Origin: Methanothermobacter thermautotrophicus str. Delta H
GTDB lineage: Archaea; Methanobacteriota; Methanobacteria; Methanobacteriales; Methanothermobacteraceae
Direction of reading: 5' to 3'
NCBI RefSeq assembly: GCF_000008645.1
Contig: NC_000916.1
Span: forward strand, 990,001-1,022,000
DNA: 32,000 bases
Shown here: positions 2,468-24,411 of the stretch, piece after piece
Layout of the letters: each line of letters begins with the position of its first letter
Position numbering within the stretch: the stretch's first letter is position 1
Program-made: the position numbers and the translations under genes
The notes under the pieces: generated by a model
The model's input: only the letters and a program-made list of their open reading frames with translations
Told to the model about the DNA's origin: nothing
Databases searched by the model: none

Positions 2468-2469
2468 GA

Positions 2470-9267: not shown

Positions 9268-9391
9268 ATAGAACACCGGCAATTAATTATTTTAATATGG
9301 TTGGAATTATGATTAATATATATGTTATCCTTACAATTGAATGGAAAGATTTATAAATATGAAAATTTGTGGGATGTGATGATGAAGCTGT
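9268..9391 (-). promoter_or_regulatory. AT-rich intergenic region with a candidate promoter of the csm operon
   Basis: This is the only sizeable gap inside the cas super-operon. A minus-strand TATA-like ATATTAAAATAATTAA (about 9283-9298) lies roughly 20-30 nt upstream of ATG 9267, geometry that fits a leaderless or short-leader mRNA. Confidence 0.45.
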
Positions 9392-9667
9392 TCAGAGAAT
9401 AACATCAAGTGGTGATTTCTCCAGGCCAAGAACATTGCGGTTCATGGCCCTCTCAGACCTGAAGGAGTATATGATAACAGAGTCCCGTTCACGATCGATA
9501 ATTCTCTCAAGGTTTGTTTCTATGCGCCTAAACTGGCTTTCAGTTACTTCTCCCTCAAATACGGAATTCTGGACCCAGTGAAGTTCTGTCCTTAGATATG
9601 ACTTCACCCGGTTAACCCTCTCAACCCCCACATCGTATACAATTAGAAGGTACACAGTTACCACCAC
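9392..9667 (-). CDS. cas2: Cas2
   Basis: The 91-aa ORF reads YLLIVYDVGVERVNRVKSYL...WVQNSVFEGE, the classic Cas2 ferredoxin fold signature. It has a GTG start that overlaps the cas1 stop. Confidence 0.92.
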   Translation of the reverse strand: MVVTVYLLIVYDVGVERVNRVKSYLRTELHWVQNSVFEGEVTESQFRRIETNLERIIDRERDSVIIYSFRSERAMNRNVLGLEKSPLDVIL

Positions 9668-10632
9668 ATCACGAATGGTTCATAACTCTTCTGACCGATT
9701 AAATGTTTGATGAGCTTGTATGCCTCCAGCCTTATTAGACGTCTGTATGAAACTTTTCTCCCCAGTTCCCTGTGTTTAACTGTCTTCCCAAGACGTCTGT
9801 CATACTCTGCGAGAAATTTCCTTTTACCAGAATTGTTAAGGAGACAATGATTCATTCCATGCTCAAAATCTTCAGCCTTAATCGCTTTTTTCTTGATAAG
9901 GGAAATTATCATCCTGTCAATGAGGGTTGGTTTGAATATCTCACTTAGGTCCAGGGCGAGTGAATATCTCCTTTCAAAGGGTTCATGTAAATAGGAGATG
10001 GTTGGATTAAGCTGTGTATTGTAAAGTTCAGTTATTACTGTTGAGTAGAGGAGTGAGTTCCCAAAGCTTATCATGGCATTGGTCATATTTTCAGGGGGTC
10101 TGCGTGTCCTCTTACCTATCCTGAATCCTTCAGGAAGGATACTGTCAATTGCATTGTAGTAATCTGAACGTATCCTTCCCTCGACATTCATGACATCGGT
10201 TACTGAATTTGAGGAGTCCAGATCCATCAGTGTATCAGAAATCCCATTTTCGATGCCATAGTAACTCAGAACCCTCCTCATGTTAAGGGCGGCTCCCCTG
10301 ACAAATGACCTTGCAAGTTCAATTCTTTTATCATGGTCAATGACATGTTCGGCCTGTTTAATAATTACATCTCCAGATAGAAGCGTCTCGCGGGGGTAGA
10401 AACTGCCACTGTAGAAGCCATATCTGTTGAAAAAGTGGATGGGTATGCCTTCCTTTGATAGAAGATTCAGGGCCTGTGACGATATTGTCAGGGCGCCATA
10501 GGAGTATATCGAATAAATTTTGTTTATGGGTATTGGTCGCTTTAAATCCTTGTTGATGAAGTATAACGTGTTTTCATTCCTTTTAAGCAAGCCATCTGTT
10601 GTTATATAGTAGTTTTTTCTTGTCATGATCAT
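9658..10632 (-). CDS. cas1: Cas1 integrase
   Basis: This roughly 324-aa ORF sits between cas4 and cas2. The track start is TTG 10662, which overlaps cas4. ATG 10632 or 10626 (MIMTRKNYYIT) just after the cas4 stop is more likely. Confidence 0.9.
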   Translation of the reverse strand: MIMTRKNYYITTDGLLKRNENTLYFINKDLKRPIPINKIYSIYSYGALTISSQALNLLSKEGIPIHFFNRYGFYSGSFYPRETLLSGDVIIKQAEHVIDHDKRIELARSFVRGAALNMRRVLSYYGIENGISDTLMDLDSSNSVTDVMNVEGRIRSDYYNAIDSILPEGFRIGKRTRRPPENMTNAMISFGNSLLYSTVITELYNTQLNPTISYLHEPFERRYSLALDLSEIFKPTLIDRMIISLIKKKAIKAEDFEHGMNHCLLNNSGKRKFLAEYDRRLGKTVKHRELGRKVSYRRLIRLEAYKLIKHLIGQKSYEPFVMWW

Positions 10633-10642
10633 CCCACACTGC

Positions 10643-11170
10643 TCAAGCCCAGCAGAGTTCAAAGTAAGCGCAGCTTCTGCAGATGGGTTTTCTCTGGGGG
10701 GCTGGTGGAGGTCCCATTATTATCCTATCAATTTCATGGATCACTCTACGAAGTTCCTCTTCATCTTCAGCACTAAGTGAAACCTCGGTTCTCTTTTTAA
10801 GAGCTGGGTAGTCAATGAATCCCCTGATCTTTTCTATTCCCTTTTCATTTTTTAGGTAGAATAGATAATATAGAAGCTGGAACCTGTGGGCCTCCTCCAT
10901 GGTCATGCCCTTTTTAACCTCATGGACCTCCAGGTAACCTTTTCTTTTAACAAAATCAGCGGCTATAAGATCATCAATTATCAATTCCTTTTTCTCACGT
11001 GTATATGATTCCTCATGTAACAGTTTCCCCAGTTTAACGAGTTCAGACTCCCGTTCCATACTAATATGGTGGGAGAAGAACCATAGCTTGGTTTTGCAGA
11101 TGAAGTAATAGTTTATCTGCAATCCCCTGACTCTGAGGTTATCCTCTCCGATTATCAAGAAAACCGCCAT
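10643..11170 (-). CDS. cas4: Cas4 (RecB-like nuclease with a C-terminal Fe-S Cys cluster)
   Basis: This 175-aa ORF has an N-terminal Cys in YYFICKTKLW, an E-V-K nuclease motif (EVHEVKKG), and C-terminal CRSCAYFELC. Confidence 0.88.
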   Translation of the reverse strand: MAVFLIIGEDNLRVRGLQINYYFICKTKLWFFSHHISMERESELVKLGKLLHEESYTREKKELIIDDLIAADFVKRKGYLEVHEVKKGMTMEEAHRFQLLYYLFYLKNEKGIEKIRGFIDYPALKKRTEVSLSAEDEEELRRVIHEIDRIIMGPPPAPQRKPICRSCAYFELCWA

Positions 11171-11171
11171 C

Positions 11172-13664: not shown

Positions 13665-14464
13665 CCGAAATCTGCAGGTATTTTAAAAGTGGATCCATCT
13701 TCAAGTTTGTAAATCTCAGTCCTCACGGTGTCATTGAGGAATATGACCTGGTTCATGCCTGTGTATATAACAGTTTGAAATGTGGGAATCCTCTCGGTTG
13801 ATTCGCCGATTTCCGCCTTGTTTGAGATTATACTTTCGCCATTTCTAAATATGACGCGCTCCGGGATTGAATAAACCGGAAATCTCTCATTTCTTATGGG
13901 GAAATGTGTTTTACCGTTACTGAGTTTTATGTATGTGGGGTATGTCATCCAGAGGTTCTTTTTAACCTCCCTTTCAATTACCTCAAAATCCCTGTGAATC
14001 CCTCTTATGAATATTATGTCCTCTGACCTCCCTAGGGATAGTGGCTTCGTGGGTTTGCGCAGTGAATCACATACCTCCTCAATTATGTCATCATCCCCTC
14101 TCAGGAAGATGTAGTAGTGACCGTTGAAGAGTTCCTGCTGATAGGAAGGACTCCGCTGGGACTTCTTGTTTACACTGTAAAGAGGGTAGCCCTTGTTCCA
14201 GAGTTTTAATTTATTATGGTGATACTTCAGGGCGATATCCCCCACTATAAAACTCTGGTAGTTCCAGAAGGTGCTCTCAAAGAGTCCATGTATGCTCACA
14301 CTGATTTCGCTGATATCCTGGTCATAGTATCTTCCAGTGGCGTTCTGCAGCATTCCGGTCACAGTTGATTTGGGGCTGAGGGGATATGTCTGCGCGTAAT
14401 CAAATGTGAAGGGGTTTCTGAACTGGGCAAATGGCTGGAATATCTCCACTGCAAGGGTTTCCAT
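13655..14464 (-). CDS. cas5: Cas5 (type I-B)
   Basis: This 269-aa ORF has the N-terminus FQPFAQFRNPFTFDYAQTYPLSPKSTVTGML, typical of Cas5. It lies between cas7 and cas3. Confidence 0.88.
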   Translation of the reverse strand: METLAVEIFQPFAQFRNPFTFDYAQTYPLSPKSTVTGMLQNATGRYYDQDISEISVSIHGLFESTFWNYQSFIVGDIALKYHHNKLKLWNKGYPLYSVNKKSQRSPSYQQELFNGHYYIFLRGDDDIIEEVCDSLRKPTKPLSLGRSEDIIFIRGIHRDFEVIEREVKKNLWMTYPTYIKLSNGKTHFPIRNERFPVYSIPERVIFRNGESIISNKAEIGESTERIPTFQTVIYTGMNQVIFLNDTVRTEIYKLEDGSTFKIPADFGWL

Positions 14465-14465
14465 C

Positions 14466-15641
14466 CTAATCCCCTGAACCTTTCCGTAACTCTACAGAAG
14501 GGTCTGTGAAAACAGCCACTCTAGATAACTCTCCGTCGTCAAATATCCCTTCGACGAACTCTTCCACCTTATCAACGTCTAAACTTTCAGCTTCAAGGCC
14601 TTCCACTTCAAAAACAGGTTTTCTCTGTTTGCTTGTGACGTGCCTGACTTTAAGTATGCGTCCATTATCGGTTTCCTGTTCCTCTATCTCATCATATTCT
14701 TCCTCAGTGTATTCATCAAGGAGAACAATTCTGTCCTTGAAGGTCATGTATGGTGAATCCCTGTAGAGTCCCATTACCATGATTTTAGGTGAGAGGTCCT
14801 CGTCCCTAGCCTTTATGGATCGTTTAAGGTTCATAACTGTCTTTATAAGGTTCATTATGCGTTTCTTTATCTTTTCATCATCCTTGAGACGGTAACGTAT
14901 CCTGTAAACCTTATCTATCTTTTCAAAGTCGCATAATTCAACATTTTCTGACTGTAATATCTCTTTCTTGTTCTTTCCCTTCTTCAGCTTAATAAGAAGC
15001 CCGTCGCCCTTCAGGCTGGATACCTTCTCAATAGATTCAAGCTTGTATTTACCATCTGCAAGAGTAACGTCACTTTTCTCAGAGATGTAAACCTCAATTT
15101 CGCCGATGCTGTCAACATCCACAACTATGGAATACTGATAGAAGGTCTGATGCTCCTCAGCTGTGAAGGGGTTTGGCTTCATCTCACCGTGACGTTTGCG
15201 CATACGATTCGCGAGACCTATGTTGGCATTGAAGTGGGCGTCATACATGAATGGTGTCATTGAAACTGCATGCCCCACCTTAACTGGGGCCGTTCTGAAA
15301 TTCTGGGGTTTTGTCTCAGTTATCAGGTAACCAAAGAGGTCGAACTCAGGGTACTCGAGTATATCTCCTGTAAGGAGGAACTCAGTGGCTGGCTGTATCA
15401 CTGTACTGTCGCCTTTACCTGATTTAACAAGGTTGTCTGCCTCAGCAAGTTCAAAGAGTCCAAACTTATCTGCAGTGTCCAGCATGCTGTACCTGAGAGC
15501 GTACCTACTCACAAGGGTGTATTGGCGACCATCCCACTTTGTTATCTTCTTGAGTTCCTGATAGTTTCCACTTCCCTGGTCATAGTTCAGGGAGTTTCCA
15601 TAGAACACGAGGTCCATTACAATGTACCTTGACATTTTCAT
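14466..15641 (-). CDS. cas7: Cas7 (Cst2/DevR-type backbone subunit, type I-B)
   Basis: This 391-aa ORF has the N-terminal motif GNSLNYDQGSGNYQELKKI, typical of Cas7. Its position also fits. Confidence 0.88.
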   Translation of the reverse strand: MKMSRYIVMDLVFYGNSLNYDQGSGNYQELKKITKWDGRQYTLVSRYALRYSMLDTADKFGLFELAEADNLVKSGKGDSTVIQPATEFLLTGDILEYPEFDLFGYLITETKPQNFRTAPVKVGHAVSMTPFMYDAHFNANIGLANRMRKRHGEMKPNPFTAEEHQTFYQYSIVVDVDSIGEIEVYISEKSDVTLADGKYKLESIEKVSSLKGDGLLIKLKKGKNKKEILQSENVELCDFEKIDKVYRIRYRLKDDEKIKKRIMNLIKTVMNLKRSIKARDEDLSPKIMVMGLYRDSPYMTFKDRIVLLDEYTEEEYDEIEEQETDNGRILKVRHVTSKQRKPVFEVEGLEAESLDVDKVEEFVEGIFDDGELSRVAVFTDPSVELRKGSGD

Positions 15642-15955
15642 TCACCTTCTCCTGCTGCCATTATTCCGATGATTATTGAGTAAGCGACCTTCTCAAAATT
15701 TTCAGGGCTGAGAGGGTAGACCCATTCAAGCTTTCTGCACAGTTTCCTGACGTTTTCATCCCCCTTCCTGGAGTTGAGGGTTCTGAGCAGAAACGAAAAG
15801 AAATCTGACTGGTTATTAACCCTCGCTGTGTTGAGCAGTTTATAAACAAGCCTCTGTCTGTAGTTCTCAGACCCGATACTTTCAAATGCAGACCTGGAAT
15901 ACCTCTTTATCTGCCAGTAGTCCCTCTCAGAGAGGAGTTTCATTTTCTTATACAT
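15638..15955 (-). CDS. Small hypothetical protein (105 aa) between cas8b and cas7, a candidate stand-alone small subunit (Cas11-like)
   Basis: ATG 15955 overlaps the cas8b stop (TAATG), and its own stop overlaps the cas7 start (ATGA). These overlaps indicate translational coupling inside the effector operon. I recognise no motif in it. Confidence 0.55.
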   Translation of the reverse strand: MYKKMKLLSERDYWQIKRYSRSAFESIGSENYRQRLVYKLLNTARVNNQSDFFSFLLRTLNSRKGDENVRKLCRKLEWVYPLSPENFEKVAYSIIIGIMAAGEGE

Positions 15956-17751
15956 TATCTGCCTCCTAAAAATCCAGTTAGAAGTGCCGCTGCGTAAATA
16001 TCCCATGTATCATCATTCTGAAGGATCCTGTTAAATAGATAATTTTTGAGGCTGTGAAATGCCGCATTCTCCTGAATAAGAATCTTCAAGAGGTTGTTAA
16101 CGAAGAGGTACCTGTTGTTCCTCCTAAGGATTGATATTAGCTGATTTATGTTGTTCTCTCTGGTTCCTGGTGGTATGAGCTCCTGAATGTTTCTCCTTGC
16201 AGTATTCATTTCCCTGTAGGTCTCCTTTATCCTTAAAACGATTTCATCCATTCTGGCTGAAATTTGAAGTGGATCATTGAAGACCTCCGGTTCTTTACGG
16301 GAGAATATCTCAGAATCAATTGCAAGTGAATAAAGGAGGGGCTTGATTCCCATCTGCCCCGTCTTTCTGTTGGCCCTTAGTATGATATGCCTCATTATCA
16401 GTGGCTTTAGGGGCTTGTTCTGAATCAGGTTTTCAAGCAGCCATCTGTACTCAGACTGGCTAACATGTAGATTGTAGTTGATTGCATCCCTTATGACATC
16501 GTCAAGGAGTATTGACGCATGGATCTTTGAGATTCCTATGTACTCAACATCGACAAATCTCTGGGTCTGACTGTTAACATCCCGGTACTTTATGATATAC
16601 ATGTTCTCAAGGGCCCACGAAGATTTGAGTTCAATGAGTGAATCTATTATCTCCTGCCAGGTAACCCTCATAAGCACACTGTTTTCCTCTATCTTCGACT
16701 TTCTGAGTCTTAATTTCTTATTGACCCGGTATGTAATTTCAATGTCATTGGAGTAGAAGAGAACATAGCCTAATCTGTTAAAAAATTCAAAGGCCCTGTC
16801 AAATGATATTAGGTATACAAAGAGGTATTTGCTGAAACCTTTGAGGTGCTTGCTTGTTAGGGGCGTATAGTATGTATTCTTTGCCTTTTTGTAGGATGTT
16901 AAGAACTTGTTGATTGTTTTATCAACCCTTCTAAGCACATCCAGGTCATCAACTCTGAAGCTTATGATATCAAAGAGGCCCTGTTTCTGTTTCTGATGGG
17001 TCGTGGATTGCTGGAAGAATACAAAATTCTTATAGAACTTGTTATCAATGGGGATTCTGTAGAAAGAATCAAGATCCTCCGGGATGCTGCTGGTACCGAT
17101 GACATCCCGCAGCCACATGCCTTTAAGTAGCTCCCTGAACCTCAACAGATGATCCTTGTAGTCTCTGAATGACTCTGAAAATTCTTCAGAAATTTCCCTG
17201 AGATTCTCATCGGGTACTGAAAATATCCTGTCAATGTCATCAAACTTGAAGCCTTTGAATTTACGTTTAAAAATCTCTCCCAGTTCCTCTGAATTATTAT
17301 CAATTAAATTTTTCTCGAGTTCCTTTACCTTCAGCGCAAGATTCTTCACATCGTCTGGTAATTTATCAGGAACTTTCTTCTTGAATATTGTTGATTCTGT
17401 CTTATTTTCAATCCAGAGGTCCATAGCTGCCCTTGTGATGTAACTGTTCCATGTGAACTCAAATATTTCATCTGGTGAATCAAATTCAGAATCGAAAAGT
17501 GCTTTTATGAATTCATTTATCAGTTCGCTGGAAACCCTTGATTTGGACTTTCTGTTTATCTCGCTGCACAGGTATGCGAAGGGGAAAAGTCCATAGTAGA
17601 GTAGTTTCTCATTTTCTGAAATTTCACGAATTTTATGGATATCAAATCCATAAATGTCCTCGATTATAAATATGAATCCAAGAATACCTGAATCAACGAA
17701 CCAGTTCCCTGTGAATTCAAGGCCTGAAGTGCGTCTGAATTCGTAGATCAT
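15955..17751 (-). CDS. cas8b: Cas8b (type I-B large subunit)
   Basis: This 598-aa Lys/Asn/Ile-rich ORF sits immediately after cas6 and before cas7-cas5-cas3. The N-terminus reads FTGNWFVDSGILGF. The call is based mainly on position and size. Confidence 0.8.
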   Translation of the reverse strand: MIYEFRRTSGLEFTGNWFVDSGILGFIFIIEDIYGFDIHKIREISENEKLLYYGLFPFAYLCSEINRKSKSRVSSELINEFIKALFDSEFDSPDEIFEFTWNSYITRAAMDLWIENKTESTIFKKKVPDKLPDDVKNLALKVKELEKNLIDNNSEELGEIFKRKFKGFKFDDIDRIFSVPDENLREISEEFSESFRDYKDHLLRFRELLKGMWLRDVIGTSSIPEDLDSFYRIPIDNKFYKNFVFFQQSTTHQKQKQGLFDIISFRVDDLDVLRRVDKTINKFLTSYKKAKNTYYTPLTSKHLKGFSKYLFVYLISFDRAFEFFNRLGYVLFYSNDIEITYRVNKKLRLRKSKIEENSVLMRVTWQEIIDSLIELKSSWALENMYIIKYRDVNSQTQRFVDVEYIGISKIHASILLDDVIRDAINYNLHVSQSEYRWLLENLIQNKPLKPLIMRHIILRANRKTGQMGIKPLLYSLAIDSEIFSRKEPEVFNDPLQISARMDEIVLRIKETYREMNTARRNIQELIPPGTRENNINQLISILRRNNRYLFVNNLLKILIQENAAFHSLKNYLFNRILQNDDTWDIYAAALLTGFLGGR

Positions 17752-18485
17752 GATGTAACCACCATACCAAAACCCATACTGTTCTTTTCACCAAAGCCAC
17801 AGTCATATCCAAACTCTATTAAACGGGGATCCCCCTCTACCCTGAACTTCATGTGATAGGCCCTGTGGTATGTCTCAGCGCCCTCCTTGGGTATCATTAT
17901 CCTTTTCCTCTTTATTGAGCGCTGATAGGGTACCAGTCTGAGGTACTCGTCGCCATCATAGTCACCATAAAACTCCCGGTACTTCCTCACAAGGTTATTC
18001 TGCAGGTTCTCATAGAATTTGAGGTCATTGGGGTTAACGTCCCACTGCTTCAGGACCCCATCCTCCTCCCTAACAGTCTTTATTATTATCGGGGAGAGTG
18101 TCCTGAACTTCATGTTTCTCCTGAATTCAGGTGGCTCCAGGAACTCCACGTACTCGACGTTTACACTTCTCCTTAGAAAATCAATCTCTGGCCTGTCGAT
18201 GAATCCCTCCACCAGGCTCTTGATCAGTTCCGTGTTTGGTGATGATATGAAGAAGTGGAATCTGCCGTCCTCTGAGAGAAGAAAGTTCTTGAAGGCCTTC
18301 CTGCGGGGTATGCTGATCTGTGAGAAGGTGAAAAACTTGAATCCATCTGCACCATGCAGCTGACTTGCAAGTTCCAGGTCAGCTATCCTGCGGTATATTA
18401 TCGCGGACAGTACATGGTTGTAGTTGTACTGAATCTTGAATGGCCTAATGTCTGATTTCAGCTCTATCTTGATTCTTAATTCAAT
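17748..18485 (-). CDS. cas6: Cas6 crRNA endoribonuclease, with the 5' end unresolved (no canonical start codon)
   Basis: The C-terminal G-rich loop reads GFGEKNSMGFGMV. The same frame stays open upstream of the track start (GTG 18212) and encodes RIKIELKSDIRPFKIQYNYNHVLSAIIYRRI..., a Cas6 N-terminal RRM. See findings. Confidence 0.85.
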   Translation of the reverse strand: MELRIKIELKSDIRPFKIQYNYNHVLSAIIYRRIADLELASQLHGADGFKFFTFSQISIPRRKAFKNFLLSEDGRFHFFISSPNTELIKSLVEGFIDRPEIDFLRRSVNVEYVEFLEPPEFRRNMKFRTLSPIIIKTVREEDGVLKQWDVNPNDLKFYENLQNNLVRKYREFYGDYDGDEYLRLVPYQRSIKRKRIMIPKEGAETYHRAYHMKFRVEGDPRLIEFGYDCGFGEKNSMGFGMVVTS

Positions 18486-18560: not shown

Positions 18561-18705
18561 ATCTCACAGATAACTCAATTCCCGCATTATTTTAAAAATG
18601 TGCTAAACCCTTCAACCTTAAAAAGAATAATATAATATTATCCTGGGAATTTGATGGCCTCTTTATGCGCAGCCCCTCTGTCTCCCCCTAAATGACCTCC
18701 TGGAT

Positions 18706-19479
18706 CTACATGAGGTTCTGCTCCTTCCTGTTGAAGAGGAAGGCTGCGATGAGTACCGCTATCACCGCAAAGATGGTTATCACCAGGAGGTTAACCTCAA
18801 GGGGGAGCACAGATCTTCTGAGTATTGTGAACCTGAGGGCATCCACTGCATAGGTGAGGGGGTTGATGTACACCGCGCCCTGAAGCCATGCTGGAAGCCC
18901 TGTTATCGGGAAGAGGGCCCCGCTCAGGAGGAATATGGGGAGCACTATGAAGCTCATTATGAGGTTGAATCCCTCCATGCTGTCGGTGAAGGCTGCTATC
19001 ACCAGTCCGAGGCCCCCGAGGCCCATGGAGATTATGAGGGCTATCACCATGCTCACAATAAAGCACTGGGGTGACATGGTGATTCCGACTATGAATGACA
19101 GGGCAAGGAGTATTGCTGCCTGTATCATTGAGGCCGTGCTTATACCCAGCGCCTTTCCAACCACCATTGACTCCCTTGAGATGGGTGCCACCAGGATCTC
19201 CTTCAGGAACCCGTACTGCCTGTCAATTATCACCGAGACCCCCGAGAATATGCTGGTGAAGAGCACTGTCTGGCCTATTATACCCGGGTATATGAATGCC
19301 TTGTAGCCCCCAGGGACTCCCCCGAATCTGACCGCGGCCCCCAGCCCTGTCCCGAATATTATGAGCCAGAGGAGGGGTGTGACTATTGATGTGACTATCC
19401 TTGACCTGTACCTGAAGAACCTCTTCATTTCACGGAGCCATATCGTGTATATACCTTCAATTTCAGCCATCCAGATCAC
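18706..19479 (-). CDS. ABC-2 type transporter permease
   Basis: This 257-aa polytopic membrane protein (about 6 hydrophobic segments) has a GTG start that overlaps the stop of the upstream ATPase (GTGA). Confidence 0.8.
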   Translation of the reverse strand: MIWMAEIEGIYTIWLREMKRFFRYRSRIVTSIVTPLLWLIIFGTGLGAAVRFGGVPGGYKAFIYPGIIGQTVLFTSIFSGVSVIIDRQYGFLKEILVAPISRESMVVGKALGISTASMIQAAILLALSFIVGITMSPQCFIVSMVIALIISMGLGGLGLVIAAFTDSMEGFNLIMSFIVLPIFLLSGALFPITGLPAWLQGAVYINPLTYAVDALRFTILRRSVLPLEVNLLVITIFAVIAVLIAAFLFNRKEQNLM

Positions 19480-20414
19480 GCCTCACTTATTCCCCTGCCT
19501 GTGTACTTTATGAATACGTCCTCAAGGGTGGGGTGTTCGAGTTCCACTGCCCTCACATAGTAGTTGTTCCTGGCTGCCAGGTTAACTATCTCAGGGACCA
19601 GGTTCTCCCCCCTCTCAACCAGCACCTTAACCTCATCATCCATCAGGTATGCCTCCTTGACGTAGTCCTGTTTCTCAAGGATTTCATGGAATCCCCTGGC
19701 CCTGTCAACCCTGACGGTTATGGTGTCAGCGCCGAGCTCCCTTTTGAGGTTCCCTGGACTGTCGGCCTTTATTATCTCACCGTGGCTCATTATGGCCACC
19801 TCGTCGCAGAGCTTATCTGCCTCCTCCATGTAATGGGTTGTCAGGAGCACTGTGACGTCCTCCTCCCTGTTGAGCTTCTCTATGTACCTCCATATGCTCT
19901 CCCTTGTCTGGGGGTCGAGTCCCAGGGTTGGCTCGTCCAGGAAGAGCACCCTTGGGTGGTGTATGAGGCCCCGCCCTATCTCCAGGCGCCTCTTCATACC
20001 CCCGGAGTAGGTCTTCACGTACTCGTCTGCCTTGTCCCCGAGGGCTATGAGTTCAAGTACCTCCTCTATCCTCCTATCCCTTACATCGCGGGGTACGCCG
20101 TAGAGGGCGGCGTGCATCTCCAGGTGCTCCCTCCCTGTGAGTATATCGTCGAGGGCCCTTGACTGGAAGACTATCCCTATGGATTCCCGGACCTTCCTCG
20201 CATCCCTGACTATGTCGTAGCCGTTGACGGTACCCCTGCCCCCTGTGGGGCGTAGTATTGTGCACAGCATGGAGATCAGTGTTGTTTTACCTGCCCCGTT
20301 GGGTCCCAGGACCCCGTAGATGGATCCCTCCGGTACCCTGAGGTTCACCCCCTTAACCGCAAGGAATTCATCATACTTCTTTTTTATATCCTCTGTCTCG
20401 ATTATGTGATCCAT
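19476..20414 (-). CDS. ABC transporter ATP-binding protein (DrrA/NatA-like exporter type)
   Basis: Walker A is GPNGAGKTT, the signature motif is YSGGMKRRLEI and Walker B is LFLDEPTLGLD. It is 312 aa with a C-terminal extension. Confidence 0.92.
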   Translation of the reverse strand: MDHIIETEDIKKKYDEFLAVKGVNLRVPEGSIYGVLGPNGAGKTTLISMLCTILRPTGGRGTVNGYDIVRDARKVRESIGIVFQSRALDDILTGREHLEMHAALYGVPRDVRDRRIEEVLELIALGDKADEYVKTYSGGMKRRLEIGRGLIHHPRVLFLDEPTLGLDPQTRESIWRYIEKLNREEDVTVLLTTHYMEEADKLCDEVAIMSHGEIIKADSPGNLKRELGADTITVRVDRARGFHEILEKQDYVKEAYLMDDEVKVLVERGENLVPEIVNLAARNNYYVRAVELEHPTLEDVFIKYTGRGISEA

Positions 20415-20510
20415 CCAAATCCTCCGCGACCCTGAAGCATCGGGTATTATGGTTAGATTTTTATCCCTGATAGTATAAATTGTTATAGTGATGCTGTGGA
20501 GGGTGCATGA

Positions 20511-21923
20511 ATGGATTTTGAGAACATTGAGAAGGCCCCTACCGGAATAAAGGGCCTTGATATGATTACTGAGGGTGGTTTTCCAAGGGGTCGTAACACG
20601 CTGATATATGGGGGTCCCGGGACAGGGAAGACTTTCATTGCAATGGAGTTCCTGCTTAAGGGTGCATCGGTCTATGGAGAGCCCGGTGTCATGGTGAGCT
20701 TCGATGAAGCCATGGAAAACCTCATTGAGAACTTCAGATCATCGGACAGGCTTCTTGAAAGGCTTATTGATGAGGGCCTGCTCTTCATAGAGGATGCTTC
20801 CAGGGGTATGGACCCGGATGCGGGGTCCTACAGCCTTGAGGCCCTGAAGCTCCGGCTTGAGGATGCCATAAGGAGGACAGGTGCCAGGCGGGTGGTCCTG
20901 GATAAGGTAGATAATCTCTTTGATGGCACTGAAAGGCAGGGAATGATTGGCTTCGAACTCAGGGAACTCATAAGGTGGCTGAATGGCATGGGGGTTACCA
21001 GCGTATTCACCTCAGGGGATTATGGTGGTTCCCCAACCCATAGGCTTGAGGAGTACATATCCGACTGTGTTATCCACCTGACACACACCTTTGAGGGACA
21101 GGTGGGTACAAGGCACCTGAGGATAGTGAAGTACCGTGGATCAGGCCACGGCCTGAACAGGTACCCCTTCATTATAACCCGGCGCGGTGCATCCATATTC
21201 CCCATCACCTCCATCAGCCTTGATTACAGTGTGAGCAGGGAACTTGTATCAACAGGAATCCCTACCCTGGATGAGATGCTCGGTGGGGGCGTGTACAGGG
21301 GGTCAGCAGTGCTCGTATCAGGTACCACCGGGGCCGGTAAGACCAGCCTGCTCTCGAAGTTTGCCTATGAGTCATGCAGGAGGGGGGAGAGGTGCCTATT
21401 CTTTTCCAATGAGGAACCCGCTGACCAGATAGTCCGCAACATGGAATCCATAGGCATCAAACTTGGTGAGTTCCTGGGCGATAAGCTACTCATACACTCT
21501 GACCGCCCCACATCCCTTGGCCTTGAGGCCCACCTCACATACATGCAGGACCTTATCATGGACTTCAACCCGGACAGTGTTCTGGTCGACCCGGTCACCG
21601 GGCTGGCAGGGGCTGGTGGGAGCCCTGAAACCCGGAATGAGAATGCTAAGCACCTCTTCATAAGGTTAACGGATTTCCTCAAAGGCAGGGGGATCACCTC
21701 AATATTCAGCTATCTGATAGCCTCGCCCTTCACCGCGACAACGACTGAGCTTAAACTCTCCTCCCTGATAGACACCTGGATCGTCCTTGAGAGCATCCGG
21801 GCCAACGGAGAGTACCGGAGGTCCCTCAGGATACTCAAGAGCAGGGGTATGAACCATTCAAGCAGCGTCGCCGAGGTCAGATTCACAGACAGGGGTATAC
21901 TCATCAAGGGGGGCTCCTGGTGA
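20511..21923 (+). CDS. kaiC: KaiC-like double-domain RecA-superfamily ATPase
   Basis: The 470-aa ORF has two Walker A motifs (GGPGTGKT and GTTGAGKT). Acidic pairs follow each domain core (SFDE, SNEE). The C-terminal block LSSLIDTWIVLESIRANGEYRRSLRILKSRG resembles the cyanobacterial KaiC phospho-site region. A KaiB gene follows directly. Confidence 0.85.
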   Translation: MDFENIEKAPTGIKGLDMITEGGFPRGRNTLIYGGPGTGKTFIAMEFLLKGASVYGEPGVMVSFDEAMENLIENFRSSDRLLERLIDEGLLFIEDASRGMDPDAGSYSLEALKLRLEDAIRRTGARRVVLDKVDNLFDGTERQGMIGFELRELIRWLNGMGVTSVFTSGDYGGSPTHRLEEYISDCVIHLTHTFEGQVGTRHLRIVKYRGSGHGLNRYPFIITRRGASIFPITSISLDYSVSRELVSTGIPTLDEMLGGGVYRGSAVLVSGTTGAGKTSLLSKFAYESCRRGERCLFFSNEEPADQIVRNMESIGIKLGEFLGDKLLIHSDRPTSLGLEAHLTYMQDLIMDFNPDSVLVDPVTGLAGAGGSPETRNENAKHLFIRLTDFLKGRGITSIFSYLIASPFTATTTELKLSSLIDTWIVLESIRANGEYRRSLRILKSRGMNHSSSVAEVRFTDRGILIKGGSW

Positions 21924-21932
21924 AGGCTGGGG

Positions 21933-22187
21933 GTGTTATCTGATGATAAGGCTGCGCTCTATGTAACCGGGGATAGCCTCTCAGAGAGGGCCCTTGAAAA
22001 CCTCATGGATGTCATTGATGATAGGGTGGAACTGGAGGTTGTGAACGTCCTGGAGAAACCCTGGCTTGCAAGGGAGAGGGGTATAATAGCGATCCCCACC
22101 CTTGAGAGGCTCAACCCGGGGCCTGAGAGGAGGGTTATAGGGGATCTTTCCGATGCAGATGCGCTGAGGAGGTTCCTTGGAATCTGA
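21933..22187 (+). CDS. kaiB: KaiB (thioredoxin-like fold)
   Basis: The 84-aa ORF reads LYVTGDSLSERALENL...VVNVLEKPWLARERGIIAIPTLERLNPGPERRVIGDLSD. This matches the KaiB hallmark LYVAG...ALxNL...VIDVLxxPxLAExxxIxATPTL...RRIIGDLSD. Its GTG start lies 9 nt after the kaiC stop. Confidence 0.88.
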   Translation: MLSDDKAALYVTGDSLSERALENLMDVIDDRVELEVVNVLEKPWLARERGIIAIPTLERLNPGPERRVIGDLSDADALRRFLGI

Positions 22188-22197
22188 GGTGGATGCC

Positions 22198-22785
22198 ATG
22201 GAGGGGAATCTCAGGAAGTTCAGGGATCTGCTCAGGGAGATATCATGTCATAGGAGCATGGAGTCCCTCATCAGGGACATGAGGGCAGGGGACCATATAT
22301 GCCTAATATATGATGGTGATGATGAGTGGAGGGGTGCCGTTGTCCCCTTCATTGTTGAAGGCCTCCGGAGGGGTGTGGACCCTGTGAGGAGGTCCCTGAT
22401 ACGGCTGGGATACGATAACATGGCAGGATACCTTGCAGGTGGATTCCCCTCCTGGTACATGGCTGGACTTGAAATCATGAAAATGAGGGCCATCAGTGTC
22501 CATGAGTTAAGGGAGATGGAGGGTGACTTCTTCCTCCTGGACGTCCGTAAGATAACAGACAGGGAGAGGTTCCACATTGAGGGCTCAGAGCACATCTGGG
22601 TTGGTGATCTGCCAGATAACCTTGATTTGATCCCAGAGAAGGATGTTGTCATCTACTGTGACTCCGGTTACAAGTCAACCATTGCTGCGAGCATACTTGA
22701 AGGCCATGGTTTCAATGTGACCACCGTCCTTGGCGGTATCGGGGCCTGGCTGAGGGCAGGATACCCTGTAGCCGGTGATGTTTAA
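22198..22785 (+). CDS. Chimeric protein: an N-terminal MEDS-domain fragment, the tail of one rhodanese domain, and one complete rhodanese domain
   Basis: GDHICLIYDGDDEWRGAVVPFIVEGLRRG matches the MEDS N-terminal signature. LGYDNMAGYLAGGFPSWYMAGLEI parallels the end of the complete C-terminal rhodanese domain (HGFNVTTVLGGIGAWLRAGYPV). The active-site loop is CDSGYKS. ATG 22198 has the SD GAGGTGG 5 nt upstream, whereas the track start is TTG 22177. Confidence 0.7.
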   Translation: MEGNLRKFRDLLREISCHRSMESLIRDMRAGDHICLIYDGDDEWRGAVVPFIVEGLRRGVDPVRRSLIRLGYDNMAGYLAGGFPSWYMAGLEIMKMRAISVHELREMEGDFFLLDVRKITDRERFHIEGSEHIWVGDLPDNLDLIPEKDVVIYCDSGYKSTIAASILEGHGFNVTTVLGGIGAWLRAGYPVAGDV

Positions 22786-22819
22786 GTTTTAATGGATAAC
22801 TGAATATGGAGGAAAAAGG

Positions 22820-23296
22820 ATGAGTATTGTTAAGATACCCCTGATGACAAAGGAAGAGTATGATGAGTTCATAGCAGAGAACTTCATAAGCAGGATAGCC
22901 TTCAACGGTGACTATCCATACATAGCCCCATTTCTCTATGTATTTGATGGGGAACACCTCTACTTCCTATCAACGAGGTACGGCAGGAAGATAGAGCTCC
23001 TCAAGAGGAACCCCTACGTCGCTGTTGAAATCGAACACTACAGTGATGACCTTTCAGAGTATCGCTTCGTTACACTGCAGGGCCAGATAGTTGAGGAGAA
23101 TGACCCCTCAACAAAGAGGCGTGTGAAGGAGATGTTCGCTGACCTCATAGAGAAGCGGGGGCTCTCAAGGAACATCCTCAGGGCTCTGGGGCATTCACCA
23201 GAGGACCCACTCAACTGTCTTGTGGAGATGGACCGATCCTATGTCTGGAAACTCGTTGAAGTGGTTGATATAGTCGGGATAAAGGGTGGTGAATGA
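22820..23296 (+). CDS. Pyridoxamine 5'-phosphate oxidase-like FMN-binding split-barrel protein
   Basis: This 158-aa ORF has the pattern ISRIAFNGDYPYIAPFLYVFDGEHLYFLSTRYGRKIELLKRNPYVAVEIE, typical of the PNPOx-like family. Its SD is GGAGGAAAAAGG. Confidence 0.7.
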   Translation: MSIVKIPLMTKEEYDEFIAENFISRIAFNGDYPYIAPFLYVFDGEHLYFLSTRYGRKIELLKRNPYVAVEIEHYSDDLSEYRFVTLQGQIVEENDPSTKRRVKEMFADLIEKRGLSRNILRALGHSPEDPLNCLVEMDRSYVWKLVEVVDIVGIKGGE

Positions 23297-23465
23297 ATTC
23301 AATGGTTCCAGGTCGTTTCAGGATCCACAAATCAACCATAAAACAGTTATAAAGAAATTCAATGGTTCCAGGTGGTTAACCACCCGGAACAGGTTAGGGG
23401 GATGAAAATTAGAAAAAGGGTTAGGGTGGTTTTGAAGGAGTTTAAATGAAGGTTGGGGGGATGAA
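23296..23465. repeat. Two pairs of direct repeats with roughly 60-bp spacing, plus a 14-bp perfect palindrome, in a convergent intergenic region
   Basis: AATTCAATGGTTCCAGGT occurs at 23296-23313 and 23356-23373. AGGTT(A/G)GGGGGATGAA occurs at 23391-23406 and 23450-23465. The palindrome GGTGGTTAACCACC lies at 23371-23384. Confidence 0.85.
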
Positions 23466-23565
23466 CATCTACCTCCTTCACCTACCCTGCTCTCTTCTAA
23501 CAATTCACATACACTAAATCTTTTTTGTGAATATATTCACTGTGGCCAGTTACTTTGTGATCACC

Positions 23566-24411
23566 TCAGGAAAGGCCTGTGAGTGCTGTGATGGTCCCGC
23601 TGCCAGCTGCAAAGGCGATGAATGTCAGGGCCATGCCTACCTTTATCATCCTTGATACCCGGGATGCTGTGGCCCTATCCTGACCCCTGAGGATCATTAT
23701 GGCTGCCCTTAGAAAAACAGCCACTGCTAGTAGGAGTACAGGAATATAGAGAGCTGAGAATATCCCTAGGAGGTAGAGGCTGGGACTTGTGAGGCTGGCG
23801 ATCAGCATGAAGGAGGCTGCCAGGACCCCTGAAATCCTCATCCCGTGGGTTATGGGGAGTGTTGTTGCACCCTCAGCCCGGTCCCCCTCAACATCCTCCA
23901 TGTCCTTGACAATCTCCCTCGCCATGGTCATCAGGAAGGCATAGAAGCCCAGGAGGATTGAAGCCCTCACCTCCCCCAGGACTATGCCCCCGAAGACGAA
24001 GCTGAGGCCCGTTAGGAAGGATATCGTAATGTTACCCACCAGGCACCTTTTCTTGAGGCGCCATGCATAGTAGACCATGAGAAGTGAACTTGAGACCACA
24101 ACGAGTCCCGGGAGCAGGCCAAGGTAGAACCCCATCAGGGACGCCAGAGCAAATAGTATGATTGAGTAAACCCCTGCAACGCCCCTGCTGATCCTCCCTG
24201 ATGGTATGGGACGTTCTGGCCTGTTTATGGCATCTATTTCATGGTCAAAGTAGTCATTGATAACATTACCTGCACCCGTGGCTGTGAAAACAACCACAGA
24301 TGCCAGGAGAACACTGAAATCGAATCTGCCCGTGATGAGGGCCATCAGCATAACTGTTATCACCGCCATGACGGCATTTACGGGTCTGAGTATCTCTATA
24401 TATGGATTCAT
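23566..24411 (-). CDS. UbiA-family prenyltransferase, probably digeranylgeranylglyceryl phosphate synthase (archaeal lipid synthesis)
   Basis: This 281-aa polytopic membrane protein has the first Asp-rich motif NVINDYFDHEIDAINRPERPIPSG and a second acidic motif KDMEDVEGD. Confidence 0.8.
   Translation of the reverse strand: MNPYIEILRPVNAVMAVITVMLMALITGRFDFSVLLASVVVFTATGAGNVINDYFDHEIDAINRPERPIPSGRISRGVAGVYSIILFALASLMGFYLGLLPGLVVVSSSLLMVYYAWRLKKRCLVGNITISFLTGLSFVFGGIVLGEVRASILLGFYAFLMTMAREIVKDMEDVEGDRAEGATTLPITHGMRISGVLAASFMLIASLTSPSLYLLGIFSALYIPVLLLAVAVFLRAAIMILRGQDRATASRVSRMIKVGMALTFIAFAAGSGTITALTGLS

Follow-up and report, generated by a model that had tools for sequence, protein, structure and literature searches.

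The kaiC and kaiB genes of Methanothermobacter thermautotrophicus Delta H are best read, with a probability of about 60%, as an intact KaiBC module of the hourglass subfamily that was orphaned in this strain by a microhomology-mediated deletion of its kinase gene. The deletion removed the kinase, created a chimeric ORF and placed a rhodanese remnant and a PNPOx-like gene behind kaiB. The window (the whole stretch of 32,000 nt that was analysed) contains the genes and intergenic regions as follows:

20415-20510, intergenic region between the divergent ABC-transporter operon (MTH1093/1094, minus strand) and kaiC
20511-21923, plus strand, kaiC, 470 aa, double-domain (CI + CII), of the bacterial kaiC-kaiB-histidine kinase subfamily
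21933-22187, plus strand, kaiB as read in this record, 84 aa, GTG start, 9 nt after the kaiC stop
22198-22785, plus strand, chimeric ORF, 195 aa (202 aa from a TTG at 22177)
22820-23296, plus strand, PNPOx-like (Pyridox_ox_2) flavoprotein gene, 158 aa, 34 nt past the chimera
23297-23565, convergent intergenic region before the UbiA gene (minus strand, 23566-24411)

The four gene products are identical to the M. thermautotrophicus proteins AAB85583-86, and the flanking locus tags suggest that the genes are MTH1095-1098.

The third ORF had been taken in the sequence-only reading for a MEDS/rhodanese gene 10 nt after kaiB. The ORF, its spacing (ATG at 22198, preceded by GAGGTG) and its rhodanese domain (55.9 bits, Pfam) were confirmed, but MEDS is present only as a fragment covering 28/161 profile positions (24.6 bits, under the Pfam cut-off of 29.8), and the gene is the product of a deletion. 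Blastn comparison to three relatives (L007, L001 and L092) identified codons 1-58 as the N-terminus of a MEDS-PAS-PAS histidine kinase and codons 59-195 as the C-terminal 137 residues of an MBL-rhodanese-rhodanese protein, including the tail of rhodanese 1 and the intact rhodanese 2. Two sites lie within the chimera:

22367-22375, plus strand, deletion junction, 9-bp microhomology GGAGGGGTG
22657-22659, plus strand, rhodanese active-site Cys, C154 of the chimera, retained in the loop CDSGYKS

The sequence GGAGGGGTG is common to the kinase gene and the MBL-rhodanese gene of an intact relative (L092, positions 5426-5434 and 8294-8302). The deletion covers 2,868 bp (956 codons), is in frame (blastn, junction alignments), and removed kinase residues 59-670 together with residues 1-312 of the MBL-rhodanese-rhodanese protein. 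The same chimera was found on 33 contigs, one of which is a complete genome of independent origin, and one of the eight lineages described below, with 97% DNA identity to Delta H, has an intact kinase locus. The "MEDS/rhodanese protein" is the scar of a strain-level deletion, not a designed sensory-sulfur fusion. Its rhodanese part, with the retained Cys, would be catalytically competent. The deletion has thus left KaiBC of Delta H orphaned, with no cognate kinase.

In eight Methanobacteriales lineages with the kinase directly after kaiB (L001, L003, L005, L007, L008, L009, L092 and L095), the gene order is kaiC-kaiB-[MEDS-PAS-PAS histidine kinase]-[MBL-rhodanese-rhodanese]-PNPOx, in several of them with overlaps of 4-11 nt at gene junctions. 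The kinase of the relatives has the architecture MEDS-PAS-PAS-HisKA_2-HATPase with a full MEDS domain (126-174 bits, profile search). MEDS has been described as an inactivated KaiC domain (PMC5847659), and it aligned with KaiC CII from just past Walker A (hhalign probability 81%, E 1.2e-5). MEDS-PAS kinases are also found without kai neighbours (L096), and an adjacent MEDS protein was present in just one of the 80 bacterial KaiB loci (L022), for which reasons a specific MEDS-Kai interaction in the relatives is only putative. The order of kaiC and kaiB had been noted as the reverse of the cyanobacterial order, but kaiC-kaiB is standard in the subfamily and not peculiar to this genome: it was found in 18 bacterial loci, with a histidine kinase directly downstream in 16 of them, and a 'kaiC-B-PAS/HK operon' has been reported for Rhodopseudomonas palustris and Rhodobacter sphaeroides (PMC4794148).

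The KaiC-KaiB pair itself proved genuine and co-oriented. KaiC was matched by PF06745 in two stretches (360 bits, Pfam profile search) and has two Walker A motifs (residues 35-41 and 271-278), and KaiB was matched by PF07689 with 83 bits against a cut-off of 27 (Pfam). Of the NCBIfam models, KaiC passed the double-domain KaiC model NF006799 (608 bits, cut-off 408) and failed the cyanobacterial KaiC equivalog TIGR02655 (297, cut-off 546). The best PDB match was R. sphaeroides KaiC (8DB3/8DBA, E 1e-119), with an identity of 47% compared to 38% with Synechococcus elongatus KaiC. The sites of KaiC are the following:

20613-20633, plus strand, CI Walker A, GPGTGKT, residues 35-41; K40/T41 correspond to S. 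elongatus K52/T53
20703-20708, plus strand, CI catalytic acid pair D65-E66, in the columns of S. elongatus E77-E78
20796-20831, plus strand, B-loop region ASRGMDPDAGSY, residues 96-107, on CI
21321-21344, plus strand, CII Walker A, GTTGAGKT, residues 271-278; K277 corresponds to S. elongatus K294
21411-21416, plus strand, CII catalytic glutamates E301-E302, corresponding to S. elongatus E318-E319; columns invariant
21744-21764, plus strand, phospho-site block T412-ELKL-S417-S418, corresponding to S. elongatus T426/S431/T432 and R. sphaeroides S413/S414

The catalytic and phospho-site columns were conserved in 9/9 archaeal KaiC sequences. In the alignment with S. elongatus, the first catalytic acid of CI is Asp instead of Glu, a residue shared by four of the nine archaeal sequences, whereas all 52 bacterial sequences have Glu. 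The B-loop, which by analogy with cyanobacterial and R. sphaeroides complexes would be the KaiB docking site, is divergent in sequence and lacks two residues in comparison to S. elongatus and R. sphaeroides. Because of these two features, the CI ATPase activity and KaiB docking may differ.

The phospho-site alignment of the sequence-only reading, giving a T/S/S triad, was reproduced with an S. elongatus reference sequence that was 100% identical to PDB 1U9I: T412/S417/S418 fall in the columns of T426/S431/T432, and the Ser-Ser pair does not lie outside the phospho-site positions but in the S431/T432 columns. In R. sphaeroides the pair corresponds to S413/S414, both of which are Glu in the phosphomimetic entry 8FWI and the phosphorylation of which has been experimentally demonstrated (PMC10076222). 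The Ser-Ser pair was present in 9/9 archaeal and 37/37 bacterial long-type KaiCs.

The absence of both a long C-terminal tail and a kaiA in the window, likewise claimed earlier, held true. The last residue of Mth KaiC aligns with S. elongatus residue 484, so that the protein stops short of both the A-loop (487-497) and the tail, and the alignment revealed no A-loop, KaiA-binding tail or C-terminal coiled coil; all nine archaeal KaiCs terminate 6-10 residues past the RGI motif. No kaiA was found, as every scanned ORF of at least 150 aa in the window was a cas or housekeeping gene. With no A-loop to bury, autophosphorylation should be KaiA-independent. Kim et al. (2008, PNAS) reportedly found S. 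elongatus KaiC constitutively hyperphosphorylated upon A-loop deletion. When truncated at residue 490, R. sphaeroides KaiC remains hexameric and autophosphorylates normally, with minimal dephosphorylation, but the coil-less protein disassembles on KaiB binding (PMC10076222), so that the coil-less archaeal KaiC may deviate from this model.

The 9-nt gap between kaiC and kaiB stands as this record reads, but it depends on the GTG start, which exists only because the record lacks one base. kaiB has its canonical ATG at 21943, and compared with all relatives the record lacks a base after 21957 (CTGCGC-TCTATG in the DNA alignment vs CTGCGCCTCTATG in the others), so that the ATG frame stops after seven codons. 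Same-lineage records encode an 81-aa KaiB beginning MIRLRLYVTG. This form was found on 41 contigs, one of them a 1,751,429-bp genome in which the 2,868-bp deletion is present too, and the 84-aa form on one contig only; with kaiB intact on 41 other contigs, the 1-nt deletion is probably a sequencing error. The AF2 model of KaiB (pLDDT 86.6) has a thioredoxin-like beta-alpha-beta-alpha-beta-beta-alpha topology, and its closest structural matches were Legionella 4KUN, the KaiC-bound R. sphaeroides 8FWJ_M and the fold-switched 5JWR/5JYT. No ground-state KaiB structure was among the top 50 matches, and Mth KaiB (81-84 aa) is without the C-terminal segment that builds the ground-state fold. KaiB is predicted to be permanently thioredoxin-like and KaiC-binding, even if the fold state given by AF2 depends on the supplied alignment and fold switching is possible. 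The claim that KaiB is rare in archaea agrees with a published survey, in which it was present in four genera, Methanothermobacter included (Schmelling 2017, PMC5520375).

The loss of the kinase could have left KaiBC in Delta H as a decaying remnant without function, which is possible but rather doubtful. Besides the deletion of the cognate kinase, the frameshift at codon 5-6 of kaiB in this record, the further shortened gene-3 products (88-89 aa) of some related assemblies, a frameshifted KaiC-KaiB fusion in one related MAG, and a dN/dS near 1 vs the nearest relative for the 58 kinase-derived codons, on only nine changes, are consistent with decay. However, kaiC is full-length with complete catalytic residues and a dN/dS of 0.11-0.17 (0.17 vs the nearest strain), the Delta H branch of kaiC has 15 synonymous vs three non-synonymous changes, and the kaiB frameshift is the probable sequencing error described above. 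Purifying selection on kaiC persists and no decay is seen, although the deletion may be too recent to let decay of kaiBC show.

It is decidedly unlikely that KaiC is a generic archaeal KaiC-family ATPase hub (motility, pili, DNA transactions) without a phosphorylation cycle and KaiB its adaptor. KaiC-like ATPases have been proposed as general signalling hubs of archaea (cited in PMC5847659) and KaiC gave weak matches to RadA, RecA and ArlH models, but the archaeal single-domain families TIGR03877/03880/03881 remained under their cut-offs while the double-domain NF006799 was passed. Moreover, T412 and the Ser-Ser sites are invariant across the archaeal clade, and the nearest KaiC relatives outside Methanobacteriales are bacterial double-domain KaiCs. 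In the KaiC tree, the archaeal clade grouped with the bacterial kaiC-then-kaiB long KaiCs in 100/100 bootstrap replicates as a sister to the bacterial clade, being nested inside it in 4/100 replicates.

The sequence-only reading had suggested a designed operon, kaiC-kaiB-MEDS/rhodanese-PNPOx, in which a KaiBC timer or stress switch would have a sulfur/redox output via the sensor and the flavoprotein; this is very improbable. All four genes run in one direction, are separated by 9, 10 and 34 nt and have a ribosome-binding site each; they are probably now co-transcribed in Delta H, so that the operon claim may hold for the present strain, but as a designed unit it is contradicted by the comparative data. 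Upstream of kaiC, there are TATA-like AT-rich boxes (TTTTTATCC at ~20459-20467 and TTATAGT at ~20483-20489) and a Shine-Dalgarno-like GGAGGGTG at 20499-20506. The TTTAT and TATA(G/A)T blocks are the sole conserved columns among six Methanothermobacter kaiC upstream regions, and this region probably holds the promoter. At the other end, a T6 run (23520-23525) could be a putative terminator of the plus-strand transcript. Two direct copies of an 18-nt repeat, AATTCAATGGTTCCAGGT, also lie in the convergent intergenic region (23296-23313 and 23356-23373), and a 60-bp unit of the region is absent in L007 (blastn).

The flavoprotein gene is as had been described (Pyridox_ox_2, 84.3 bits, Pfam; 34 nt after the third ORF). 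Its strong purifying selection (dN/dS 0-0.04) and the retained rhodanese Cys are in favour of the designed operon. The arrangement is nevertheless unique to the Delta H lineage and was created by the 2,868-bp deletion, which also reduced MEDS to a fragment below the Pfam cut-off. In the eight relatives, a kinase of 624-675 aa and a further 14-613 bp part kaiB from the MBL-rhodanese/PNPOx pair, and the PNPOx gene, located 3-35 bp after the MBL-rhodanese gene in L001, L003, L007, L008, L092 and L095, is a tight partner of that gene, not of kaiBC. The bacterial subfamily members had neither rhodanese nor PNPOx neighbours in the loci examined. Synteny extends over the whole region from the ABC transporter to UbiA, so that mere adjacency gives no functional signal, and kaiBC has been kept by descent within Methanothermobacter and related Methanobacteriales. 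Because of the deletion, the apparent sulfur/redox coupling in Delta H is accidental, and the output of KaiBC was likely the histidine kinase since lost, not sulfur/redox enzymes.

A self-sustained, temperature-compensated circadian oscillator in a methanogen has next to no probability despite the full-length double-domain KaiC with conserved phospho-sites and the KaiB, as KaiA, A-loop and KaiA-binding tail are missing, R. sphaeroides KaiBC, the nearest relative to have been characterised, works as an hourglass requiring external ATP/ADP cycling (PMC10076222), the host is a non-phototrophic thermophilic anaerobe, and the predicted fold of KaiB is fixed in the binding-competent state, whereby the slow fold-switch delay would be gone.

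For the orphaned hourglass module, homology and gene order suggest that KaiC would be a double-ring ATPase and autokinase phosphorylating S418 and S417, with T412 auxiliary, and that its KaiA-independent autophosphorylation would be on by default at high ATP. The short KaiB would bind the CI ring of phosphorylated, post-hydrolysis KaiC and drive the system back, the expected outcome being an ATP/ADP-responsive phospho-switch or hourglass rather than a self-sustained clock. In the relatives, the state of KaiBC would most likely be sensed by the translationally coupled downstream kinase, whose N-terminal MEDS is itself KaiC-like but has no P-loop.

The best solved relative is R. sphaeroides KaiBC (8DBA/8DB3/8FWI, 8FWJ; Pitsawong et al. 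2023, PMC10076222), which shares the Ser-Ser columns, the kaiC-kaiB-kinase order of the subfamily and KaiA-independence (predicted in Mth); the Mth KaiB model also superposes on the KaiC-bound R. sphaeroides KaiB. Unlike Mth KaiC, R. sphaeroides KaiC has ~100 extra C-terminal residues forming an exposed A-loop and a coiled coil, which builds the dodecamer and drives dephosphorylation; Mth KaiC ends ~24 residues short of the end of the engineered coil-less construct. Further differences are the CI Asp, the shorter B-loop, and the kinase, to which a MEDS domain is added in the Methanobacteriales relatives and which is deleted in Delta H. In the R. palustris kaiC-kaiB-PAS/HK operon (Ma et al. 2016, PMC4794148), the three genes are arranged as in the Methanobacteriales relatives, and the system is likewise proto-circadian, hourglass-type and non-cyanobacterial, but it comes from a phototrophic bacterium with a long KaiC and a kinase without MEDS.

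S. elongatus KaiABC shares with Mth the double-domain fold, the Walker motifs, CII E318/E319, the T426/S431/T432 columns and the arginine fingers, and the natural end of Mth KaiC coincides with that of the crystallised truncated construct 7X1Y (residue 484). In addition to the failed equivalog model and the missing KaiA, A-loop and tail, Mth differs in its opposite gene order, Ser at the T432 position and a C-terminally shorter KaiB. Legionella pneumophila KaiB (Lpp1115, 4KUN), the top structural match of the Mth KaiB model (TM 0.87), is similarly short and thioredoxin-like and comes from a non-photosynthetic organism, although a bacterial one, and the identity is only 35%. Legionella KaiBC is tied to stress resistance, not timing, and no MEDS kinase is known beside it. 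The cyanobacterial SasA-KaiC pathway resembles the Methanobacteriales kinase in having a histidine kinase with an N-terminal sensor homologous to a clock component. The SasA sensor is a KaiB-like thioredoxin domain and that of the Methanobacteriales kinase a KaiC-like MEDS. The mimicry is thus reversed and an interaction is putative; the Methanobacteriales kinase is absent from the Delta H window.

The system as such is of a known kind, being annotated by NCBI and its genus included in the published survey (PMC5520375). Its main value is that it offers, in a tractable model methanogen, a KaiBC variant that has lost its kinase naturally.

The four proteins encoded at the locus have exact matches in M. 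thermautotrophicus (AAB85583-AAB85586, in a genome of 1,751,377 bp), and the reading frames and their spacing were as the sequence-only reading had described them. The genes, with locus tags assigned by inference, are the following:

20511-21923, plus strand: kaiC (470 aa), MTH1095
21933-22187, plus strand: kaiB, MTH1096
22198-22785, plus strand: third open reading frame (195 aa), MTH1097
22820-23296, plus strand: PNPOx-like gene, MTH1098

In NCBI the first two products already carry the names 'circadian clock protein KaiC' and 'circadian clock KaiB family protein'. Just upstream of kaiC, on the minus strand, lie MTH1093 and MTH1094, an ABC transporter according to Kaster et al. (2011). The left flank consists of CRISPR-Cas genes and the right flank of housekeeping genes, namely those of a UbiA prenyltransferase, thymidylate kinase, inositol-1-phosphate synthase and a pyruvate carboxylase subunit. 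Scans of the window for Rfam families and tRNA genes found neither. The literature searched contained nothing on MTH1095-1097, nor on kaiB under the name 'Methanobacterium thermoautotrophicum'.

The array and cas region covers positions 150-800 and 2470-18212 on the minus strand. After the CRISPR array (repeat ATTTCAATCCCATTTTGGTCTGATTTTAAC) come two cas clusters, one type III-A-like (Csm6, RAMPs, Cas10) and one type I (Cas1, Cas4, Cas3, Cas5, Cas7/DevR, Cas6). Cas6 is 154 aa long both in the window and in L092, a strain 97% identical in its DNA, compared with 217-256 aa in more distant relatives. A RAMP-family cas gene includes a perfect tandem duplication of 33 nt (2.0 copies, 6053-6118). 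Directly 3' of the PNPOx stop codon there are two copies of an 18-nt direct repeat, AATTCAATGGTTCCAGGT, at a distance of 60 nt (23296-23373); the 60-bp unit is present in L092 and absent in L007, another related Methanobacteriales lineage.

The KaiC-KaiB pair is genuine, as both proteins pass their family models. KaiC matched Pfam PF06745 with 360 bits in two stretches, corresponding to two KaiC/RecA domains (CI and CII), and scored 608 against the cut-off of 408 in NF006799, the NCBIfam model of double-domain KaiC. The Walker A motifs GPGTGKT (residues 35-41) and GTTGAGKT (residues 271-278) are also present, as are D131 and D360. By its tandem domains and the curated cut-off the protein is thus a member of the double-domain KaiC family. 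KaiB scored 83 bits with PF07689 (cut-off 27) and has the LYV(T/A)G, PTL and IGDLS motifs, and so belongs to the KaiB family; its scores with the cyanobacterial equivalogs stay below the cut-offs (NF006798, 47 vs 110; TIGR02654, 46.6 vs 145). Residues L9, Y10, V11, T12, G13, P55, T56 and I69-S73 were invariant in the KaiB alignment. Methanothermobacter is among the four archaeal genera in which Schmelling et al. (2017; PMC5520375) reported KaiB.

The catalytic and phosphorylation residues of KaiC were studied in a three-way alignment with the KaiCs of Synechococcus elongatus and Rhodobacter sphaeroides. The S. elongatus query was verified to be 100% identical to PDB 1U9I before the alignment. 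T412, S417 and S418 of the window KaiC fall into the columns of S. elongatus T426, S431 and T432, and the T/S/S triad proposed earlier was thereby upheld. The Ser-Ser pair also aligns with R. sphaeroides S413/S414, which are Glu-Glu in the phosphomimetic entry 8FWI and have been found experimentally to be phosphorylated (PMC10076222). The Walker lysines, the arginine fingers and the CII residues E301/E302 (S. elongatus E318/E319) are conserved. The CI catalytic pair is D65/E66 in place of E77/E78, with Asp replacing the first Glu; this replacement occurs in the window KaiC and in four of the nine archaeal sequences, Glu being kept in each of the 52 bacterial ones. Apart from this CI position, the residues of the ATPase and kinase and the phospho-sites are complete and do not vary within the archaeal clade, and autokinase, autophosphatase and slow ATPase activities would be expected of a double-domain KaiC. 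Among archaea, KaiC3 homologues of Thermococcus and Pyrococcus are able to autophosphorylate (PMC5520375).

The window KaiC ends at the equivalent of S. elongatus residue 484, ahead of the A-loop (487-497), and no KaiA was found among the window ORFs scanned, so that the absence of the long KaiA-binding tail noted at first sight was confirmed. All nine archaeal sequences terminate 6-10 residues past the RGI motif. An identity as the cyanobacterial KaiC1 of the KaiABC oscillator was ruled out by the TIGR02655 score (297 vs 546) together with the lack of the A-loop/KaiA-binding tail and of kaiA. Neither is the protein an R. sphaeroides-type KaiC, in which approximately 50-100 residues following CII build an exposed A-loop and a coiled coil: it has 470 aa, versus 561-629 aa in most bacterial members. 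With neither A-loop nor coiled coil, the KaiC of Methanobacteriales is the most stripped-down full-length KaiC among those compared here.

The best solved relative is the R. sphaeroides hourglass KaiC (E 1e-119, 47% identity), with cyanobacterial KaiC behind it (approximately 1e-83, 38%). In a search of 5.8 billion proteins, all matches with at least 59% identity belonged to Methanobacteriales and were 465-485 aa long, and the next tier, at approximately 50% identity, was bacterial and mostly 560-600 aa in length, with a C-terminal extension. In the neighbor-joining tree the archaeal KaiC clade was monophyletic in 100 of 100 replicates, and in as many it joined the long bacterial KaiCs encoded in the order kaiC then kaiB. 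The two groups appeared as sisters, the archaeal clade being nested inside the bacterial one in 4 of 100 bootstraps. An origin by transfer from bacteria, with the coiled coil lost afterwards, was dropped as not established, given this low frequency of nesting.

A contig scan with the RRVIGDLSD pattern gave 80 KaiB loci. They were all bacterial; the scan missed even Methanothermobacter, probably because both arginines are encoded in the window by AGG codons, and it is uninformative on the distribution of KaiB in archaea. The loci formed two classes, one with the order kaiC(long)-kaiB(-kaiB)-histidine kinase and the other with kaiB-kaiC (approximately 500 aa). The first class included 18 loci, 16 of them with a histidine kinase directly downstream, and it corresponds to the 'kaiC-B-PAS/HK operon' already described from Rhodopseudomonas palustris and R. 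sphaeroides (Ma et al. 2016; PMC4794148). Since kaiC precedes kaiB on the same strand in the window, in these 18 bacterial loci and in eight archaeal lineages, the order, earlier noted as the reverse of that in cyanobacteria, is normal for the subfamily.

The eight archaeal lineages were M. marburgensis (CP001710), a second marburgensis-labelled genome, strains with 88%- and 96%-identical KaiC, and four more distant Methanobacteriales. All eight share a syntenic locus composed of an ABC transporter (minus strand), kaiC, kaiB, a kinase (624-675 aa), an MBL-rhodanese-rhodanese protein (448-452 aa), a PNPOx-like protein (158 aa) and UbiA (minus strand). The kinase has the architecture MEDS-PAS-PAS-HisKA_2-HATPase_c, and kaiC, kaiB and the kinase gene overlap by 4-11 nt at their junctions in several lineages. 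A PAS histidine kinase thus lies directly downstream of kaiB in 8/8 related lineages; in the window its first 58 codons are left. Two kaiC-kaiB-kaiB-kinase loci of Desulfobacterota, in Desulfococcaceae/Desulfobacteraceae MAGs (L025:166-4151 and L032:929-7127), have the most similar HisKA_2-type kinase core, one that matched our own methanogen-kinase HMM with E approximately 1e-73, versus 1e-7 to 1e-17 in the other bacterial loci. The KaiCs of both loci diverge basally in the clade of long bacterial KaiCs, and the likeness to the methanogen kinase may be a trace of exchange between anaerobes.

The loss of the kinase could be traced to a single junction. In blastn, the window aligned with L092 in two blocks, 18680-22375 with L092 positions 1736-5434 and 22367-24321 with 8294-10246, sharing 9 bp (GGAGGGGTG) common to the kinase gene and the MBL-rhodanese gene. 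Delta H has thus an in-frame deletion of 2,868 bp, or 956 codons, which joins kinase residues 1-58 (...PFIVEGLRRG) to MBL-rhodanese residues 313-449 (VDPVRRSLIRLGYDNMAGY...). The third open reading frame is this deletion scar. It had been read as a MEDS/rhodanese protein with a possible sulfur/redox output of the clock pair, and neither part of that reading holds: the ORF is the product of the deletion, and its MEDS match reached 24.6 bits over profile positions 1-28 of 161 (PF14417, cut-off 29.8), in comparison to complete MEDS domains of 126-174 bits (positions 1-161) in the kinases of the relatives. As the remainder comprises the N-terminal helix, the first strand and the first helix, a MEDS domain cannot form in the chimera. 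The second rhodanese domain is intact, including the CDSGYKS cysteine loop (C154), and of the first rhodanese domain the tail is left. The chimera was present on 33 contigs, including an independent assembly of 1,751,429 bp, and is therefore real and fixed in the lineage.

In the intact genomes the MBL-rhodanese and PNPOx genes form a tight pair, 3-35 bp apart, located 14-613 bp downstream of the kinase. The 449-aa MBL-rhodanese protein of L092 had full-length matches to 3TP9 (E 3e-55) and to 3R2U (E 5e-47), the latter being the S. aureus CstB-type persulfide dioxygenase-sulfurtransferase. The window encodes no such CstB-like protein with an N-terminal metallo-beta-lactamase and two rhodanese domains. 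Because the whole region is syntenic, the gene neighborhood gives no evidence for the pair as part of the Kai module. Some MAGs of Methanobacteriaceae have the MBL-rhodanese gene broken up into several ORFs (L004/L005:9600-11400; L009:9687-11032), and in L004/L005 the PNPOx gene is split as well. The kaiC-kaiB-kinase genes are intact there, and the downstream pair hence looks more dispensable than the Kai module. In L007 the MBL-rhodanese protein (5358-6707) has THRNEDY in place of the usual metallo-beta-lactamase motif HxHxDH, which is odd for a persulfide-dioxygenase-like enzyme; such an enzyme would need O2, and the host is a strict anaerobe.

Also the kaiB gene of this record differs from those of its relatives. 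The DNA alignment showed it to lack one C after position 21957, a base that every relative has and that is present on 41 other contigs of the lineage. The conserved ATG lies at 21943 with GGGGGTG in front of it, and from this start the reading frame is not intact in this record, stopping after seven codons (21943-21966); an upstream GTG rescues an ORF of 84 aa. The 84-aa form (starting MLSDDKAALYVTG) was found on one contig, and an 81-aa KaiB starting MIRLRLYVTG on 41 contigs of the lineage, including the 1,751,429-bp genome. For this reason the missing base is most likely an error of the 1997 sequence record; were the loss real, the change would be confined to the first strand. The 84-aa KaiB and the NCBI name 'rhodanese-like domain-containing protein' for MTH1097 are both misleading, and unsuitable for design or for reading the function of the operon. 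A Methanothermobacter MAG protein (MBC7111892.1) annotated as a 558-aa KaiC-KaiB fusion, corresponding to window positions 21900-22187, originates from a frameshift just ahead of the kaiC stop that runs into the kaiB ATG frame, and may be either an assembly error or a real fusion.

The AF2 model of KaiB, built from an alignment of 60 sequences, had a pLDDT of 86.6 and a thioredoxin-like beta-alpha-beta-alpha-beta-beta-alpha topology. The top Foldseek matches were the Legionella KaiB 4KUN (TM 0.87), the KaiC-bound R. sphaeroides KaiB 8FWJ_M and the fold-switch-stabilised 5JWR/5JYT, with no ground-state KaiB structure in the top 50. The protein is accordingly modelled, as a prediction only, in the thioredoxin-like, KaiC-binding fold. 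In our own alignment its last residue corresponds to S. elongatus residue 91, and Phe and Gly stand in place of G88 and D90, which makes a permanently binding-competent KaiB plausible, while the AF2 result would be compatible with a second state.

Given the lack of the A-loop, autophosphorylation of the archaeal KaiC would be expected to be independent of KaiA and on by default. Deletion of the A-loop in S. elongatus KaiC leads to constitutive hyperphosphorylation. In R. sphaeroides KaiC an exposed A-loop gives fast KaiA-independent phosphorylation, and a KaiC without the coil is phosphorylated normally, shows hardly any dephosphorylation and dissociates upon KaiB binding (PMC10076222). From this behavior, the archaeal KaiC would need KaiB, ADP or the kinase for its resetting, or else other stabilising features. 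Most likely, KaiBC would act as a phospho-switch or hourglass that responds to the energy state (ATP/ADP) and is read by the kinase encoded downstream. The KaiA-independent timer or switch suggested in the sequence-only reading thus stands as far as the pair, its phospho-sites and the independence from KaiA are concerned, without the unusual gene order and the sulfur/redox coupling.

With the kinase gone, KaiBC in Delta H is an orphan; it may work with a different partner, or it may have begun to decay. Purifying selection acts on kaiC (dN/dS 0.11-0.17), with 15 synonymous and 3 non-synonymous changes on the Delta H branch. A visible decay of kaiC after the loss of the kinase was dropped, as the substitution counts gave it no support; they show none so far, but the deletion is a recent one.

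How the kinase of the relatives might read KaiBC is suggested by its MEDS domain, which aligned with KaiC CII just past Walker A (hhalign probability 81%, E 1.2e-5). MEDS has been described as an inactivated KaiC domain (PMC5847659), and its KaiC-like nature is based on hhalign, on cross-matches of our own HMMs and on that description; a Foldseek search with the full-length kinase model was dominated by PAS/HWE-kinase matches and did not inform on the MEDS fold. The alignment and the description led to the idea that a histidine kinase of Methanobacteriales reads the state of KaiBC through MEDS, its P-loop-less copy of KaiC, which would dock on KaiB or stack with the KaiC ring, the system being tuned to the supply of energy (H2/ATP) and not to light. 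We consider this doubtful, with a probability of roughly one in four. If true, the MEDS kinase would mirror SasA of cyanobacteria, in which the sensor is a mimic of KaiB, and archaea would have their first output pathway leading from KaiBC to a two-component system.

The view that KaiBC regularly has a MEDS partner was dropped, since among the 80 bacterial KaiB loci a MEDS neighbor was found in one, L022 (5945-9850, Anaerolineae MAG DAOTVC010000156.1). There, the gene of a MEDS-GAF-PAS protein (688 aa, MEDS 161 bits) extends into the start of a kaiB-kaiC pair, which has the other of the two gene orders, and a PAS/GAF histidine kinase of 1,443 aa comes next; the locus hints at an independent MEDS-Kai association. 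Another Methanobacteriales genome has a MEDS-PAS kinase without kai neighbors.

KaiBC systems outside cyanobacteria are regarded as the prokaryotic clock in its ancestral, hourglass form. To our knowledge, the R. sphaeroides system is the only non-cyanobacterial KaiBC dissected biochemically, and none has been dissected in archaea. The gene pair had already been annotated and catalogued, and the operon type described. Within the literature searched, three features appear to be new: the type strain has lost the cognate kinase in a strain-specific manner, the partner kinase in the genus bears a MEDS domain, and the KaiC is naturally without A-loop and coil. A KaiC of this kind can be used to find out which elements of the R. 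sphaeroides mechanism are indispensable, and the KaiC-like sensor on the partner kinase of the relatives points to an output route that can be tested. Delta H, the type strain and a standard laboratory methanogen, is a natural knock-out without the kinase, which M. marburgensis and the 97%-identical strain retain; if the proposed output route is true, Delta H would serve as the kinase-null strain and these two as its wild-type comparators.
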